From the NCBI GenBank assembly GCA_944372335.1, contig CALVYQ010000002.1, forward strand, positions 90,409 through 154,408: a stretch of DNA of 64,000 bases, written 5' to 3'. The stretch comes from an uncultured Clostridia bacterium. GTDB lineage: Bacteria; Bacillota; Clostridia; Christensenellales; UBA1242. The notes beneath the pieces are model-generated. The model was not told the DNA's origin and did no database searches. It saw only the letters and a list, made by a program, of their open reading frames with translations. Within the stretch, counting starts at the first letter, position 1; every line of letters begins with the position of its first letter. A program made the translations under genes and the position numbers. Of this stretch, positions 53,807 through 61,045 are shown piece by piece.

Positions 53807-55015
53807 ATGGAACTTGCTCAACTTTTGCAAAAAACGATTAATGAAAACGGATTAAATCAAACTATTTTTGCAAAGCGAATAAACGCAACTCAAGCACAAG
53901 TAAGCGATTGGTTATCGGGAAAATCTAAACCTAATTATGAGAATCTACGTTCAATAGCAATAAATTTCAAAATAGATGCTAATAATTTATTAAATATAAA
54001 AAGCAATAGAGAGACCTTTACTAATGTAGAATTGTTTGCTGGTGCGGGAGGCTTAGCCTTAGGCTTGGAACAGGCTGGATTTATCAATTTATTATCTAAT
54101 GATTTTGATAAGGATTCATGCAACACTTTAAAAACTAATAGGCCAGATTGGAATGTTGTCTGTGATTCTGTTGAAAATTTGGCTGAGCAGAATTTATTAA
54201 AGAAGTTAAACTTACAAGAGGGTGAATTAGACTTGTTGTCGGGCGGATATCCGTGCCAATCTTTTAGCTATGCAGGCAAAAAACTAGGACTGAATGATGT
54301 TAGAGGAACAATGTTTTATTATTTTGCAAAAATATTAAAGCAGTTAAAACCTAAAATGTTTTTAGCTGAGAATGTTAAAGGGTTAGTTAGTCATGATGGT
54401 GGTAAAACACTACAGACAATGATAAATGTATTTGAAGAAATAGGATATCATGTTCAATATAAAGTGTTAAACGCATGGGATTTTGGAGTTGCTGAAAAAA
54501 GAGAAAGAGTGGTTATAATTGGAATAAGAAACGACATTAAGGGTGAATATAATTATCCTACTCCTTATGCTTATAAACCTGTTCTTCGAGATGTTTTAAA
54601 TGATGTTCCAAAATCCGAAGGAGCTTCGTATCCGCAAAGTAAAAAAGAAGTCTTTGATTTAGTTCCTCCTGGTGGTTGTTGGAGAGATTTGCCTGAAGAT
54701 GTTGCAAAAGCATACATGAAAGGATCGTATAATCTTGGTGGAGGGAAAACAGGTATGGCTAGGAGAATTTCATGGGACGAACCAAGTTTGACAATCTTGT
54801 GTTCACCGTGTATGAAACAGACTGATAGGTGTCACCCAGAAGAAACAAGGCCGTTTACTGTAAGAGAAAGTGCAAGGATTCAGTCTTTTCCTGACGAATG
54901 GCAATTTAGTGGTAATATGTATAGCAAATACAAACAAATTGGCAATGCTGTGCCGGTTAATATGGCCAAAGAAATAGGATTGTCAATAGTAAGATTTTTA
55001 AAGGAGGTTAAGTAA
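53807..55015 (+). CDS. dcm: C5-cytosine DNA methyltransferase with N-terminal XRE HTH (Eco47II/Sau96I-like)
   Basis: ELFAGAGG (motif I), GGYPCQSFS (IV), ENVKG (VI), RERV (VIII), RESARIQSFP (IX), YKQIGNAV (X); the first ~62 aa form an HTH. Confidence 0.95.
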   Translation: MELAQLLQKTINENGLNQTIFAKRINATQAQVSDWLSGKSKPNYENLRSIAINFKIDANNLLNIKSNRETFTNVELFAGAGGLALGLEQAGFINLLSNDFDKDSCNTLKTNRPDWNVVCDSVENLAEQNLLKKLNLQEGELDLLSGGYPCQSFSYAGKKLGLNDVRGTMFYYFAKILKQLKPKMFLAENVKGLVSHDGGKTLQTMINVFEEIGYHVQYKVLNAWDFGVAEKRERVVIIGIRNDIKGEYNYPTPYAYKPVLRDVLNDVPKSEGASYPQSKKEVFDLVPPGGCWRDLPEDVAKAYMKGSYNLGGGKTGMARRISWDEPSLTILCSPCMKQTDRCHPEETRPFTVRESARIQSFPDEWQFSGNMYSKYKQIGNAVPVNMAKEIGLSIVRFLKEVK

Positions 55016-55762
55016 ATGGCATATTTAAATTTTATAAGCGACACTGATCTAGAAAAACATATAAAGGAAACATTAGATGAATATCGTGAAACTCTAAAAA
55101 AAATTGACTTAAGTAAGTTTAATGAAAATATTATAGATCCGATTAAATTAACATTTGACTCTATTGTCTATAATAAAAAGATAAAAACTATTTTAAATGA
55201 AGAGATTGCTAGGCAAAGGGACAAAAGTAACACAAACGCTATTGGTTATTTTCATCAAAAAATTTTTAAATACATAAAAAATTGTGAGGTTCCGCAAAAA
55301 GGCTTTGATATAATATTTGATGATGGCAAACAAAAATATTATGTAGAGTTAAAGAATAAGCATAACACAATGAATAAAGGCGGGGCGGATAGTGTGTATA
55401 TCAATTTACAAAATCAAGCCTTAAAAGATACTAATTGTATATGTGCTCTAGTTGAAGTTATTGCTAAAACTAGCCAAAATATCAAATGGCAAAGAACTTT
55501 AAATGGGAAAAAAGTTGAAAATGAAAGGATTAGAAGAATTTCGATTGATAAATTTTATGAGATTGTTACAGGAGAAAAAGATGCTTTTGCTAAGCTGTGC
55601 AAAGTATTGCCAGAAATAATAACAAAAATAGTGAATAAAACAATTGCAAATAAAAGAGAAAAAGATACGGTATTTAAAGAACTTAAACAAAAAGATAAGA
55701 ATTTGTTAAAGGCTCTTTACTTGCTAGCGTTTAAAACTTATGAGGGATTTGATAAATTTTAA
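55016..55762 (+). CDS. Type II restriction endonuclease, Eco47II family (probably GGNCC-type)
   Basis: IDPIKLTFD, RQRDKSNTNAIGYFHQ, GFD...VELKNKHNTMN (PD-ExK), FYEIVTG; abuts the dcm stop codon. Confidence 0.88.
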   Translation: MAYLNFISDTDLEKHIKETLDEYRETLKKIDLSKFNENIIDPIKLTFDSIVYNKKIKTILNEEIARQRDKSNTNAIGYFHQKIFKYIKNCEVPQKGFDIIFDDGKQKYYVELKNKHNTMNKGGADSVYINLQNQALKDTNCICALVEVIAKTSQNIKWQRTLNGKKVENERIRRISIDKFYEIVTGEKDAFAKLCKVLPEIITKIVNKTIANKREKDTVFKELKQKDKNLLKALYLLAFKTYEGFDKF

Positions 55763-58781: not shown

Positions 58782-58867
58782 ATAAAAAAGCACCTATAAA
58801 AATGAACAAAACTTCAAAAGTTTGACGCTTAATGAGGTTCACTTCATGAGAATAGGTGTTTTTTATT
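58781..58867. terminator. Bidirectional terminator stem with an inserted element in its loop
   Basis: AATAAAAAAGCACCTAT (58781-58797) pairs with ATAGGTGTTTTTTATT (58852-58867) across a 54-nt loop. Confidence 0.55.
58803..58846. mobile_element. Possible IS3/IS150-family end remnant (mini-element)
   Basis: TGAACAAAACTTCAAAAGTTTGAC...GAGGTTCACTTCA: TG...CA termini and resemblance, from recall, to Firmicute IS3-family terminal inverted repeats. Confidence 0.35.
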
Positions 58868-58871
58868 GTGT

Positions 58872-60824
58872 TTAAATTAAAAGAGTGACAAGTTTTTCAA
58901 TATCATAAGGACGAATGACCTTTTGATTTTCTTTTGCTTCATAGTTTCTGTCAAAGACGTAGTCGGCCTTTGTCTTTGACTTGATTACATTGCCACGAAG
59001 AGATAGAAGTTTGTAAAGATTGAAATTTGAAAGATAGTTGGTGTTAAGATATGGCAAAATTGATTTGACAACTCCACTTGATACCACGCTGGCATCACTT
59101 GCAAGCACTTGATTGATGATTACTATTTCGTTTGTATCAAAATCAATAGCAAAGCCAATATACGCACGACTTTCGCCTTTAACGTGGATTTTAAGTTCAA
59201 TATTGTTTGGTGCCCATACTTTGGTGTTGAGATTATCTTTATTTTGATAACCGCAATAGATTTCTCCACTATTCAAGGTGGAGCCGTAACCGTTTAGCGT
59301 GAATACCGCATATTTATATCCAAGAGCTTTCAATTCTTCTATATCAAAATCGATAAACTCAGAGCCGTTTCTATCTCTGTTATCTCCAGAAGTTAGGGCA
59401 CTGCTTCCAAAAAGTTTTTTGCTGTAATTTCCCCAATAGAGAATTTGTGGGTTATTTTTTGAGTGCAAAAAGACAACAGATGCATCAATGTCAAATGCGT
59501 CTTTCCAATAGCTAAAAGTTCTAATATATTTGCCGTTAATTGGAAGCCTACTGCCGGTAGGTAAAACATCTAAGCCTGTTCCGATGGCACTCGTATTTAA
59601 AGGCAAACCTAGATGCTTAAATTCTCTATCTATGTAGATATTGCCAAGGCTTTCTTTGCTCTTATAATATTTTTCGATTTTTTCAAGCATAACCTTCTTT
59701 ACCATCATTTTTGTGGCTTTTGACAATTTAGATTTTCTATGAGTAAATTCATATTCCGTTTCAACATGATTTTTCATAGTGTTGTCTTTGAAAAATTTAA
59801 ATATTCTTGGCTTAGAATAGTCATCTAAAAGAATGCCTTGAAGAAGTTGTATTAAAACTATTGGATTCTTATCTTTGACATAACTTAGAATTTCTCCAAT
59901 TTCCTCCTTTTTAGCACGTGATAAAAGAAAGATGAGATTTCTTTCAAGAAGAGAACCGTTTTGAGCAAAAAGCTTTGTCGCTTCAATTATATCCCCTTTA
60001 TCAATTAATTTTTTTGCAATAGAAAAAGGACTTGACAAGTTGTTTTCAAGAGGCAATTCCAAATTTAATTTTTTAATTATTCTGTTATAGTATTTTGCTT
60101 GCTTTTTTGTCAAAAAACAGTCTTTGGCATTTTTTATCACAAGTTCTAAAAGTATTTTTTTGTCGTCAGGAATACTGAAAGTCTTTTTTTCACCAATAAG
60201 CCTGACACTGAGTTTGACAACGTCTTTCTTATCGAGCATTTTTGCGAAAAAGTCATTCTTGTATTCCATTAAAGCTAATATTATGTTGTCTTTACATTTT
60301 ATCGGCTCGCCATTATAGTAGCCATTTAAGTAAAGCCAAAAAAATTCATTTTTTTCATCTATTGCCCAAGGACGAGTGTAGGAGCAAAAATTAAGCAAAA
60401 TTTCCTTTAAAATTTTTTCGCTTTCAACTTCTGTTATCATTTTGTATTTTCTTAAAACGACCTCATCTCCCTTATTATATTTAGGAAGGATTTTTTTAAA
60501 CACAGGCACACGCTCAAAAACACTTTCATCAAGAGAGAAAGGGTCGGTTGACTCAATTTTTAAATAGGACACCAACTGCTCAATCAAAAGTTCATCGCAA
60601 GAATAATATTTAGCGTCCTGAGGATTTTTATAGAAAGAGGCGGGTATCTTTTCGCCGTAAAAGTTTGAAAGGGTGATTAAATTTTTATTAGAAAGAAGCT
60701 TTGGCTTATCAACAACTATGCCAAATTGATTTAATAATTTTATAGATAAATACAGTGCGTTTTTCTTGTCCGCATTTTCGTCAACAATCAAATATCTTCT
60801 TTTTAGTAATATTTGCTCTTTCAT
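58872..60824 (-). CDS. ROT/TROVE-like helical protein with a C-terminal TerD-like domain
   Basis: The C-terminus has TerD-type motifs (LPTGSRLP...IRTFSYW...DIDAS...SGD....GSEFIDFDIEEL..LGYKY). It is preceded by FYKNPQ...ELLIEQLVSY and a long helical region with LERNLIFLLSR. The architecture resembles Prok-RING_4-associated proteins but lacks the RING. Confidence 0.72.
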   Translation of the reverse strand: MKEQILLKRRYLIVDENADKKNALYLSIKLLNQFGIVVDKPKLLSNKNLITLSNFYGEKIPASFYKNPQDAKYYSCDELLIEQLVSYLKIESTDPFSLDESVFERVPVFKKILPKYNKGDEVVLRKYKMITEVESEKILKEILLNFCSYTRPWAIDEKNEFFWLYLNGYYNGEPIKCKDNIILALMEYKNDFFAKMLDKKDVVKLSVRLIGEKKTFSIPDDKKILLELVIKNAKDCFLTKKQAKYYNRIIKKLNLELPLENNLSSPFSIAKKLIDKGDIIEATKLFAQNGSLLERNLIFLLSRAKKEEIGEILSYVKDKNPIVLIQLLQGILLDDYSKPRIFKFFKDNTMKNHVETEYEFTHRKSKLSKATKMMVKKVMLEKIEKYYKSKESLGNIYIDREFKHLGLPLNTSAIGTGLDVLPTGSRLPINGKYIRTFSYWKDAFDIDASVVFLHSKNNPQILYWGNYSKKLFGSSALTSGDNRDRNGSEFIDFDIEELKALGYKYAVFTLNGYGSTLNSGEIYCGYQNKDNLNTKVWAPNNIELKIHVKGESRAYIGFAIDFDTNEIVIINQVLASDASVVSSGVVKSILPYLNTNYLSNFNLYKLLSLRGNVIKSKTKADYVFDRNYEAKENQKVIRPYDIEKLVTLLI

Positions 60825-60835
60825 CTTCCACCTCT

Positions 60836-60916
60836 AAAAAAATATAAGCATATTAGGCCAATCTAGTTTATATCTTTTAGATTCATTGAAATAAGAGTTG
60901 GCTCGAATGCTTACAT
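60836..60916 (-). ncRNA. Candidate structured leader / Y-RNA-like small RNA
   Basis: It begins at the predicted TSS. The 5' end (AUG)UAAGCAU pairs with the 3' AUGCUUA(UAU). An inner stem GCCAA(C)UCU/AGAUUGGC has a single bulged C, and the RNA ends in U7 before the RBS. Confidence 0.5.
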
Positions 60917-60920
60917 ATAG

Positions 60921-60949
60921 AGTATAGTATAAAAATATCCACTTGTCAA
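60921..60949 (-). promoter_or_regulatory. sigmaA promoter of the leader RNA and TROVE-like-TerD gene
   Basis: On the minus strand: TTGACA-17 bp-TATACT. Confidence 0.8.
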
Positions 60950-61045
60950 TAGATTTTTAATTATGATTTTTAGATATTGCTAGTTTTTAACGAAATTTTT
61001 TATATTTGTTTGTAATTTTTATATGCTTTTTGTTAAAATACTTTT

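Follow-up and report, generated by a model that had tools for sequence, protein, structure and literature searches.

The window analysed here, a 64,000-nucleotide stretch of contig CALVYQ010000002.1 from an uncultured Clostridia bacterium (Christensenellales, UBA1242), carries on its minus strand a promoter, a structured RNA of about 80 nucleotides (nt), and a gene for a protein of 650 amino acids (aa). The verdict of this study is that the RNA represents a new Y-RNA-like family whose partner would be a protein other than Ro60, one in which a helical-repeat domain is followed by a TerD fold; binding between the two is predicted from sequence comparison. The RNA-protein pair recurs in more than a hundred gut bacteria and large phages, and it resembles the particles formed by Ro60 and Y RNA closely enough to suggest a relative that has not been described before. 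Ro60/Y-RNA particles handle damaged RNA and are, to our knowledge, the only well-studied bacterial ribonucleoproteins (RNPs) of this kind, with a function that is partly understood.

The RNA family and its distribution

A sequence-only reading of the window had proposed a near-consensus minus-strand promoter with a 17-nt spacer, an RNA with paired ends, an inner stem with one bulged C, and a U run after the hairpin, and all four are present where they were placed (Table 1). The promoter-like site TTGACA-17-TATACT has 11 of 12 matches and is the best of the 21 sites listed in a 3-kb scan, in which 10.7 were expected, and its spacing would put the start of transcription at about 60914-60915. RNAfold pairs the ends of the 80-nt RNA over 9 base pairs (bp) in addition to the inner stem (GCCAA-C-UCU / AGA-UUGGC, with C60897 bulged), with a minimum free energy of -15.7 kcal/mol, and an equally good fold was found in one of 200 shuffles. 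The 29-nt loop of this module is unstructured and is not conserved. Two mini-hairpins had been suggested at the apex, but this part of the RNA varies in length and sequence and lacks conserved pairing. The ribosome-binding site (RBS) begins one base after the U7 tract, which leaves no room for a second promoter, and the gene would therefore be transcribed only by read-through from the promoter of the RNA.

The same arrangement is found in the closest relatives of the cassette. In alignment A3, which contains 15 RNAs from relatives with 41-86% protein identity, the outer stem around the core is common to all, and RNAalifold predicts 17 pairs, nine of them with compensatory changes; the outer-stem pairs 7/87, 9/85, 12/82, and 13/81 have changes on both sides. 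A promoter of the form TTGACx-17-TAxxxT, with 9-12 of 12 matches, is present in all 15 and stops 18-24 nt short of the inner stem, and all 15 have a T run after the 3' arm. In one locus (L019) the unit is present twice in tandem, both times with a promoter and a T run of its own, and in another (L004) the unit lies approximately 100 nt further upstream. These features support the description of the RNA as a putative promoter-to-terminator unit.

Beyond this clade, nearly all loci have the motif GAGCC-NNNN-CUUAUUUC, followed by a variable loop and NNNN-GGCC, in the 260 nt upstream of the homologous genes, and changes between the two arms were obviously compensatory when these regions were read by eye. 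A covariance model (R1) was built from 68 short modules (alignment A5), and its 150 best matches, comprising 134 distinct sequences, were fitted to the model as the alignment used for covariation. The conserved core, here called the handle, starts with a G that pairs with the C following the 3' arm and an invariant bulged A at position 2 (A60903 in the window), and continues with five base pairs of variable sequence, a one-base bulge, and three further pairs, one variable and then C-G and U-A, both invariant. The hexanucleotide UAUUUC, the variable loop, and the 3' strand complete the core, and the family consensus of the 5' strand is GAGCCnAUnCUUAUUUC. Five of the six positions of UAUUUC are identical in all 134 distinct sequences, while at the third 129 sequences have U and five have C, and the hexanucleotide and the bulges are kept across protein identities of 39-86%. 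The bulged C emphasized in the window is thus conserved as a bulge but not as a C, the base being U in 116, C in 15, and A in three of the 134 sequences. In short modules the loop has 16-38 nt and varies in both length and sequence.

The covarying stem that had been anticipated upstream of the homologues was found. Pairing is kept in 99.8% of 1205 cells, and six of the nine base pairs change on both sides (195 cells), counts that come from a model-fitted alignment in which many sequences are related and do not represent independent events. The covariation score is 0.501 compared with 0.162 for shuffles (none of 500 as high), and is at most 0.076 when the partners are slid by 1-3 columns. Because a fitted alignment leans towards its model, a sequence-anchored pairing test was added: the gene strand has 208 distinct CTTATTTC anchors, and for 174 of them a perfect 7-bp partner is present no more than 135 nt away, with 13.1 expected when the 5-nt arm is shuffled, and none of the nine anchors on the opposite strand has a partner. 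At the level of sequence, these results support a genuine, conserved, covarying RNA element that is tied to the protein family.

The loci in which this link was studied were sampled from species genomes (19), metagenomes (80), and viral contigs (24). R1 has one credible match in the window and one in the whole genome of the window. In 99 loci (461 kb, both strands) there are 193 matches at E <= 0.01, every one of them on the gene strand and none within the gene; 78 loci have copies upstream of the gene (140 in total) and 29 have copies downstream of it (53 in total). The 24 viral loci, a set overlapping the former in that L112 and L057 are one contig, have 70 matches in 23 loci, again all on the gene strand. 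Of the 84 loci for which 300 nt or more of upstream DNA is available, 75 have a copy 24-201 nt before the start codon, some copy is present in 88 of the 99 loci, and the modules form arrays of up to five on both sides of the gene. No copy was found in 40 related genomes that lack the protein, among the best ~138 candidates scored per genome. A 22-base pattern representing the commonest handle variant occurs in three stretches in 596 Gb of species genomes: two of them are contigs that encode the protein, and the remaining one is a different contig from one of these same metagenome-assembled genomes (MAGs). Two tandem handle modules were observed on another contig of the MAG of L015 (L134:3430-3560), where an 8-kb stretch contains no gene for the protein; these orphan modules argue for RNAs that act in trans. 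Cassette DNA is also present in chicken-gut and other animal-gut metagenomes.

The gene itself was absent from the 24 same-genus genomes first searched, and the window cassette stands alone between genes for membrane proteins. The two genes that flank the cassette are also neighbours in the closest same-genus genome (G346), where the spacer between them has 176 nt (L133:1531-1706), compared with 2264 nt in the window, and promoter, RNA, and gene therefore constitute one inserted unit of approximately 2.1 kb. Viral contigs, of which many measure 65-237 kb, have the gene together with its modules inside tRNA arrays of the same strand.

A census of 160 distinct pattern-defined modules contains 115 with loops of up to 40 nt, 18 with intermediate loops, and 27 with loops longer than 80 nt. 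The T-loop motif is present in four of the intermediate modules and in 24 of the long ones, and 19 of the long modules have both T and D arms. Three intermediate modules (L042:1110-1189, L068:3690-3766, and L082:1027-1101) have a T-arm-like hairpin and a second hairpin, without a D arm, and recall the partial tRNA likeness described for Deinococcus radiodurans Yrn1. With permissive thresholds, five long modules match the Rfam family YrlA over the entire model (positions 1-114 of 114), with 34.5-45.3 bits and E values between 3.6e-7 and 5e-4, and two more match it partially, but all of these matches are below the YrlA gathering threshold of 69 bits. In L015, the T arm, the acceptor-like hairpin, and the D arm of the YrlA model fit, while the stems of the model do not. 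The comparison with Rfam that had been suggested for the upstream RNA gave no family at E <= 10 for the window RNA and none at E <= 1 for short modules in eight whole loci, in which the only matches are to tRNA, to YrlA below threshold in the long modules, and weakly to tmRNA; 20 loci searched at gathering thresholds have tRNAs only. Rfam 15 has no model for the handle. YrlA itself is reported to be a substrate of tRNA enzymes (TruB, RNase P, or the CCA-adding enzyme).

In Chen et al. 2014 (PMC4201824), YrlA is defined by a permuted tRNA-like domain together with the Ro-binding motif GNCGAAN0-1G, and RNAs of this type are reported to be encoded on the strand of the Ro60 gene and no more than 4 kb from it. 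The same paper gives the Ro60-binding motif near the 5' end as GNCGAAN0-1G in bacteria and GGUCCGA in vertebrates. The window RNA does not have this motif, its 5' strand reading GAGCCAACUCUUAUUUC, and its module does not contain a permuted tRNA-like domain. Y RNAs (YrlA and YrlB with Ro60/Rsr, in Salmonella Typhimurium, D. radiodurans, and mycobacteriophages) are like the present family in being small RNAs next to a same-strand gene for a helical-repeat protein, often with several RNAs per locus, and in occurring in phages. Also shared are a bulged stem as the presumed protein handle, a division into a subclass whose tRNA-like domain is permuted (V, T, acceptor-like stem-loop, D) and a short subclass without such a domain, and an association with RNA repair genes. 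The two differ in the handle, which is GA-5bp-bulge-3bp-UAUUUC here rather than GNCGAAN0-1G or GGUCCGA; in the scores against YrlA (RF02553), which are 34-45 instead of 69 bits with the fit confined to the tRNA-like part; in the protein, in which neither TROVE nor vWA can be detected and the C-terminal domain is a TerD fold; and in the neighbours, which are kinase-HD, metallophosphoesterase, and Rnl1-type enzymes here rather than RtcB/RtcA. The effector-like module is thus shared with YrlA, while the handle and the neighbouring protein differ, and the window RNA would be the handle alone, comparable by analogy to the short YrlB. The Y-RNA likeness originally claimed for the window can be retained for the end-paired stem and for the YrlA-like inserts of relatives, but the Ro60 motif, a detectable TROVE neighbour, and an Rfam score above threshold are all missing.

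The protein and its relatives

The protein belongs to a family with at least 427 homologues in a large protein collection, most of approximately 650 aa, and a profile of its N-terminal domain has 339 representatives at 50% identity (E <= 0.001). The 650-aa protein has no match to a Pfam family at E <= 1, TROVE, TerD, and RING included, and neither TROVE nor TerD is matched at E <= 0.1 by any of 32 diverse relatives. Searches of the PDB with the protein and with the N-terminal profile gave nothing useful. A partial match to NCBIfam NF041916 aligns residues 274-578 with positions 397-711 of the 842-position profile (E 3.5e-18, 65.2 bits, cut-off 600). In the ESM Atlas, a 60%-identical homologue (P0006) has a TM score of 0.80 over residues 1-650 to an SCO0854-type cluster in which 98% of the members have PF14447, and several nearby clusters are labelled largely viral. 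In the AlphaFold2 model of the protein (pLDDT 89.4, pTM 0.88), the C-terminal domain has the TerD beta-sandwich fold by structure comparison; a fold search with the whole model gives TerD only, the other rows being long, poor alignments with TM scores of approximately 0.1. TerD is a calcium-binding fold, and the invariant residues S479 G480 D481 ... G487 E489 D492 are presumably its calcium site. The suggested relationship to Prok-RING_4-type TerD proteins was therefore well founded, and the protein is confirmed as a helical-repeat domain with a TerD fold that is related to the SCO0854/Prok-RING_4 core.

The TROVE-like toroid that had been expected on the same grounds did not emerge from the sequence comparisons, and by structure the case is ambiguous. 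The Pfam results just given are one part of the evidence, and another is that hhalign gives a probability of 0.2% for a relationship to four Rsr proteins from the same phylum, or 0.8% with a more diverse family alignment, although these four similar sequences, which do match Pfam TROVE, are the whole TROVE side of the comparison and limit its sensitivity. TROVE (PF05731) has no match in the genome of the window, and the C-terminal domain does not have the vWA/MIDAS arrangement, the TerD fold standing in its place. Structural hints are weak: residues 255-361 of Ro60 (1yvp_A), the last repeats before vWA, align with residues 267-387, the last repeats before TerD, and a phage TROVE protein in BFVD is matched with a Foldseek probability of 0.69 (E 0.28). 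Ro60 is among the structural matches but does not stand out among them, and the models point to a TROVE likeness that is weak. The expression "ROT/TROVE-like repeats" is used for SCO0854-type proteins in Pfam and Aravind-group descriptions, and for the present protein it is a tentative label. The claim that the RNA is the partner of the protein encoded downstream is supported with regard to the family-wide link, the RNA being absent among the candidates scored from 40 related genomes without the protein, but not with regard to a partner that resembles Ro60.

Among described proteins, the MXAN_6230/SCO0854 RING proteins (NF041916; PF14447) have the helical and TerD core in common with this family, but they have a RING finger and approximately 840-990 aa, while the present protein has no RING finger and 650 aa, and scores far below the 600-bit cut-off. 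No RNA partner for the MXAN_6230/SCO0854 family was found in the literature searched. TerD/tellurite-resistance proteins (2KXT, 2QZ7, 3IBZ) share the beta-sandwich fold of the C-terminal domain, which here is too diverged for Pfam TerD (PF02342), is fused to a helical domain of 420 residues, and has no ter operon context. Two phage proteins in BFVD, H6SUA9 of Campylobacter virus IBB35 (Foldseek E 5.5e-5) and A0A291I9M6 of Lactobacillus phage LpeD (E 2.3e-3), are distant structural relatives of the N-terminal domain with approximately 14% identity. These phages could serve as culturable systems, provided that they carry handle RNAs. Isolated phages have only one match to the protein, partial and with 27% identity.

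A proposed particle and its alternatives

On balance, we consider it rather probable that the window contains a self-contained cassette for an RNP, in which a terminated small RNA of the Y-RNA type would be bound by the helical-repeat and TerD protein. A strong sigma-70 promoter would drive the ~80-nt RNA, and the outer stem of paired ends would close the conserved bulged helix, followed by the single-stranded UAUUUC. The hairpin and U7 would act as an intrinsic terminator at which most transcripts end as free small RNA, and read-through transcripts would carry the gene. The bulged helix and UAUUUC would be the recognition handle through which RNA and protein form the particle. The window RNA would be the minimal form, as YrlB is, and in relatives the handle would carry a permuted tRNA-like domain, as in YrlA. 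The particle would probably survey, protect, or repair RNAs that are damaged or resemble tRNA, a role proposed because of the analogy to Ro60/Y RNA and because of the tRNA arrays and RNA end-healing neighbours in phages. The comparisons show the anatomy, the conservation and covariation, the bias in strand and position, the co-occurrence of RNA and gene, the TerD fold, and the YrlA-like inserts; the transcript ends, termination, read-through, physical binding, and cellular role are inferred. A free RNA is proposed, rather than only a leader, because of the downstream copies, the arrays, the tandem promoters of L019, and the orphan modules of L134.

If the hairpin were purely a cis-acting leader or attenuator for autoregulation, bound by the protein or by another factor and with no function as a free RNA, its position 24-201 nt before the start codon in most loci, the U7 tract abutting the RBS with gene expression by read-through only, and the hairpin and T run of all 15 clade members would be explained. 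Protein-binding leaders and intrinsic-terminator attenuators, such as those of ribosomal-protein genes, likewise have a structured 5' element and a U tract before the RBS; unlike them, however, the present element also occurs downstream of the gene (53 copies in 29 loci), in arrays of up to five, in tandem units with their own promoters, and as orphan copies on another contig, and its YrlA-matching tRNA-like inserts have no role in an attenuator. A leader without further function is thus an unlikely explanation, and attenuation and a free RNA product are not mutually exclusive. The modules might instead be independent small RNAs of mobile elements or phage tRNA clusters, such as decoys or processing signals, that accompany the gene without being bound by the protein it encodes. 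The presence of modules and gene together in one-strand tRNA arrays of viral contigs and the L134 modules with no gene within 8 kb are in agreement with this, but the minimal cassette of the window clade consists of RNA and gene only, without tRNAs, and was inserted as a unit. The absence of the RNA among the candidates scored from the 40 relatives without the gene, the confinement of the 22-base pattern to genomes with the gene, and the conservation of UAUUUC and the bulges over such a range of protein identities are further evidence against it, and we regard mere co-travel as improbable.

A canonical but highly diverged Ro60/Rsr-Y RNA system, with the helical domain as a true TROVE ring and TerD replacing vWA, would account for the 1yvp_A alignment, the phage TROVE protein found by Foldseek, and the resemblance of the tRNA-like inserts to YrlA. 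Evidence against it is the lack of Pfam TROVE matches in the protein and in 32 relatives, the hhalign probabilities, the stem of the YrlA model, which does not fit, and the absence of GNCGAAN0-1G, and it is very unlikely. Promoter-like hexamers are common in this A+T-rich genome, as the 3-kb scan indicates, so that a chance hairpin or an ordinary promoter and terminator without specific RNA function might be imagined, but conservation, covariation, and co-occurrence contradict it and it can be dismissed for practical purposes.

Several observations nevertheless weigh against an RNP cassette of the proposed kind, in addition to the dependence among the aligned sequences, the missing Ro60-binding motif, and the weak TROVE likeness of the protein. 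Nine of the 84 loci with sufficient upstream DNA have no upstream copy, eight of these nine carrying downstream copies, and 11 of the 99 loci have no copy at all; nine of the 11 are cut on the 5' side (with less than 300 nt ahead of the match, or with the gene represented by its C-terminal part alone), but L074 and L086 are not. The hairpin with U7 is long and conserved, yet it is not listed by a scan for consensus terminators, because its loop and G+C content are outside the rule of that simple tool. Only a minority of loci, to which the window does not belong, have RNA-repair neighbours. The data from RNA libraries consist of short assembled contigs inside the gene, 153 and 227 nt long from two metatranscriptome runs of one study, which do not cover the RNA and carry no strand or end information, and a third run labelled as RNA is probably DNA; these public data are uninformative about expression in either direction.

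Genomic surroundings and meaning of the cassette

The features of the cassette and the coordinates of neighbouring genes are collected in Table 1. The neighbours were surveyed with Pfam in 107 open reading frames (ORFs) of 33 non-redundant loci, two per side where present, and include AAA_33 (seven ORFs), KTI12 (five), DnaG primase domains (four), Metallophos (three), T4-type RNA ligase 1 (RNA_lig_T4_1, two), and HD (two). In five loci an ORF of ~310 aa with an N-terminal P-loop kinase domain of the AAA_33/KTI12 type is directly upstream of the cassette, and in L113 and L015 this ORF also has a C-terminal HD phosphohydrolase domain. We take the combination of AAA_33 and HD to be that of RNA end-healing enzymes. 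The phage cassettes in tRNA arrays beside kinase-HD proteins, metallophosphoesterases, and T4-Rnl1-type ligases are like T4 Pnk and Rnl1-type repair sets, but differ from them in the restriction of such neighbours to the minority of loci mentioned above. We know of no RNP component of the T4 repair system.

Table 1. Positions of the cassette features in the window and of neighbouring genes in sampled loci (locus:start-end)
Feature	Position	Strand	Basis or remark
-35 box TTGACA	60944..60949	-	read from sequence, and promoter scan
-10 box TATACT	60921..60926	-	17-nt spacer from -35 box
Predicted ~80-nt RNA, promoter to U7 end	60836..60915	-	fold z -2.66; compensatory changes among the RNAs of 15 orthologues
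Outer stem, 5' arm (UGUAAGCAU)	60907..60915	-	RNAfold, clade alignment
Outer stem, 3' arm (AUGCUUAUA)	60843..60851	-	RNAfold, clade alignment
Core module, family-defining	60855..60904	-	R1 match, 46.8 bits, E 1.4e-9
Bulged C in 5' strand of inner stem	60897	-	position conserved, base not
Single-stranded UAUUUC, 3' of the 5' arm of the inner stem	60888..60893	-	near-invariant; candidate protein contact
U7 tract 3' of outer stem, terminator-like	60836..60842	-	T run in 15/15 clade members
RBS GAGGUGG, one base past U tract	60828..60834	-	read from sequence
Gene for 650-aa protein (P0001)	58872..60824	-	ATG at 60824
N-terminal helical-repeat domain, residues 1 to ~420	59565..60824	-	unclassified family
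C-terminal TerD-fold domain, residues 428-589	59058..59543	-	
Spacer containing the entire cassette	58782..61045		comparison of flanking genes with closest same-genus genome
AAA_33 ORFs	L113:2333-3268, L115:2623-3552, L120:2811-3734, L124:2828-3754, L015:1796-2737		
~580-aa ORFs	about 5090-6920 in L008/L010/L016; 3442-5187 in L011		

Several further genes were observed near cassettes. ORFs of ~580 aa lie directly downstream of the cassette in four Christensenellaceae-type loci (L008, L010, L011, and L016) and, judging by size, are likely to be the four DnaG primase matches. ARAGORN identifies a tmRNA with a tag peptide (L126:7189-7580) in the tRNA array of a 124-kb viral contig, approximately 1.2 kb downstream of the cassette, and, in phage arrays adjoining the cassette, tRNA-like genes with a 4-base (aaag) or 2-base anticodon (L119:5979-6053, L124:8807-8881, and L111:8974-9047). 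The latter may be frameshift-suppressor-like tRNAs or mis-called tRNA mimics. Elsewhere in the window, on the plus strand at 53807-55762, a 402-aa ORF is directly followed by a 248-aa ORF. Judging by motifs in its translation, the first looks like a cytosine-5 DNA methyltransferase fused to a helix-turn-helix domain, and the two ORFs may be a restriction-modification pair.

In the literature searched, neither this RNA nor any RNA partner of this protein family is described, although the supplementary YrlA loci of Chen et al. 2014 might include some of the long modules, and a 2026 preprint on bacterial tRNA mimics deals with other families. What is added is a compact RNA family new to Rfam, with clean covariation, a near-invariant hexanucleotide, and two fixed bulges, and with it a specific candidate protein partner whose first 420 residues are without a Pfam family. 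An uncharacterised protein family of 339 representatives would thereby gain a testable function, and the two-part cassette of ~2.1 kb is small enough for transfer into a laboratory host.

It is conceivable, although we lean somewhat against so broad a reading, that these cassettes are a second, Ro60-independent lineage of Y-RNA-type RNPs, in which a doubly bulged helix with UAUUUC is read by a TerD-capped protein and the handle is joined to interchangeable effector modules, from nothing at all through a single T arm to a complete permuted tRNA mimic. With these modules, gut Firmicutes and large phages would recruit tRNA-handling or end-healing enzymes that protect or repair tRNAs in phage-host conflict, and the window would have the minimal version, acquired as a mobile cassette. 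The family in any case provides a natural series of handle-plus-effector variants, tRNA mimics included, and suggests that the design known from Y RNAs, a protein handle combined with a tRNA-like module, either originated or was put to new use in company with another protein.

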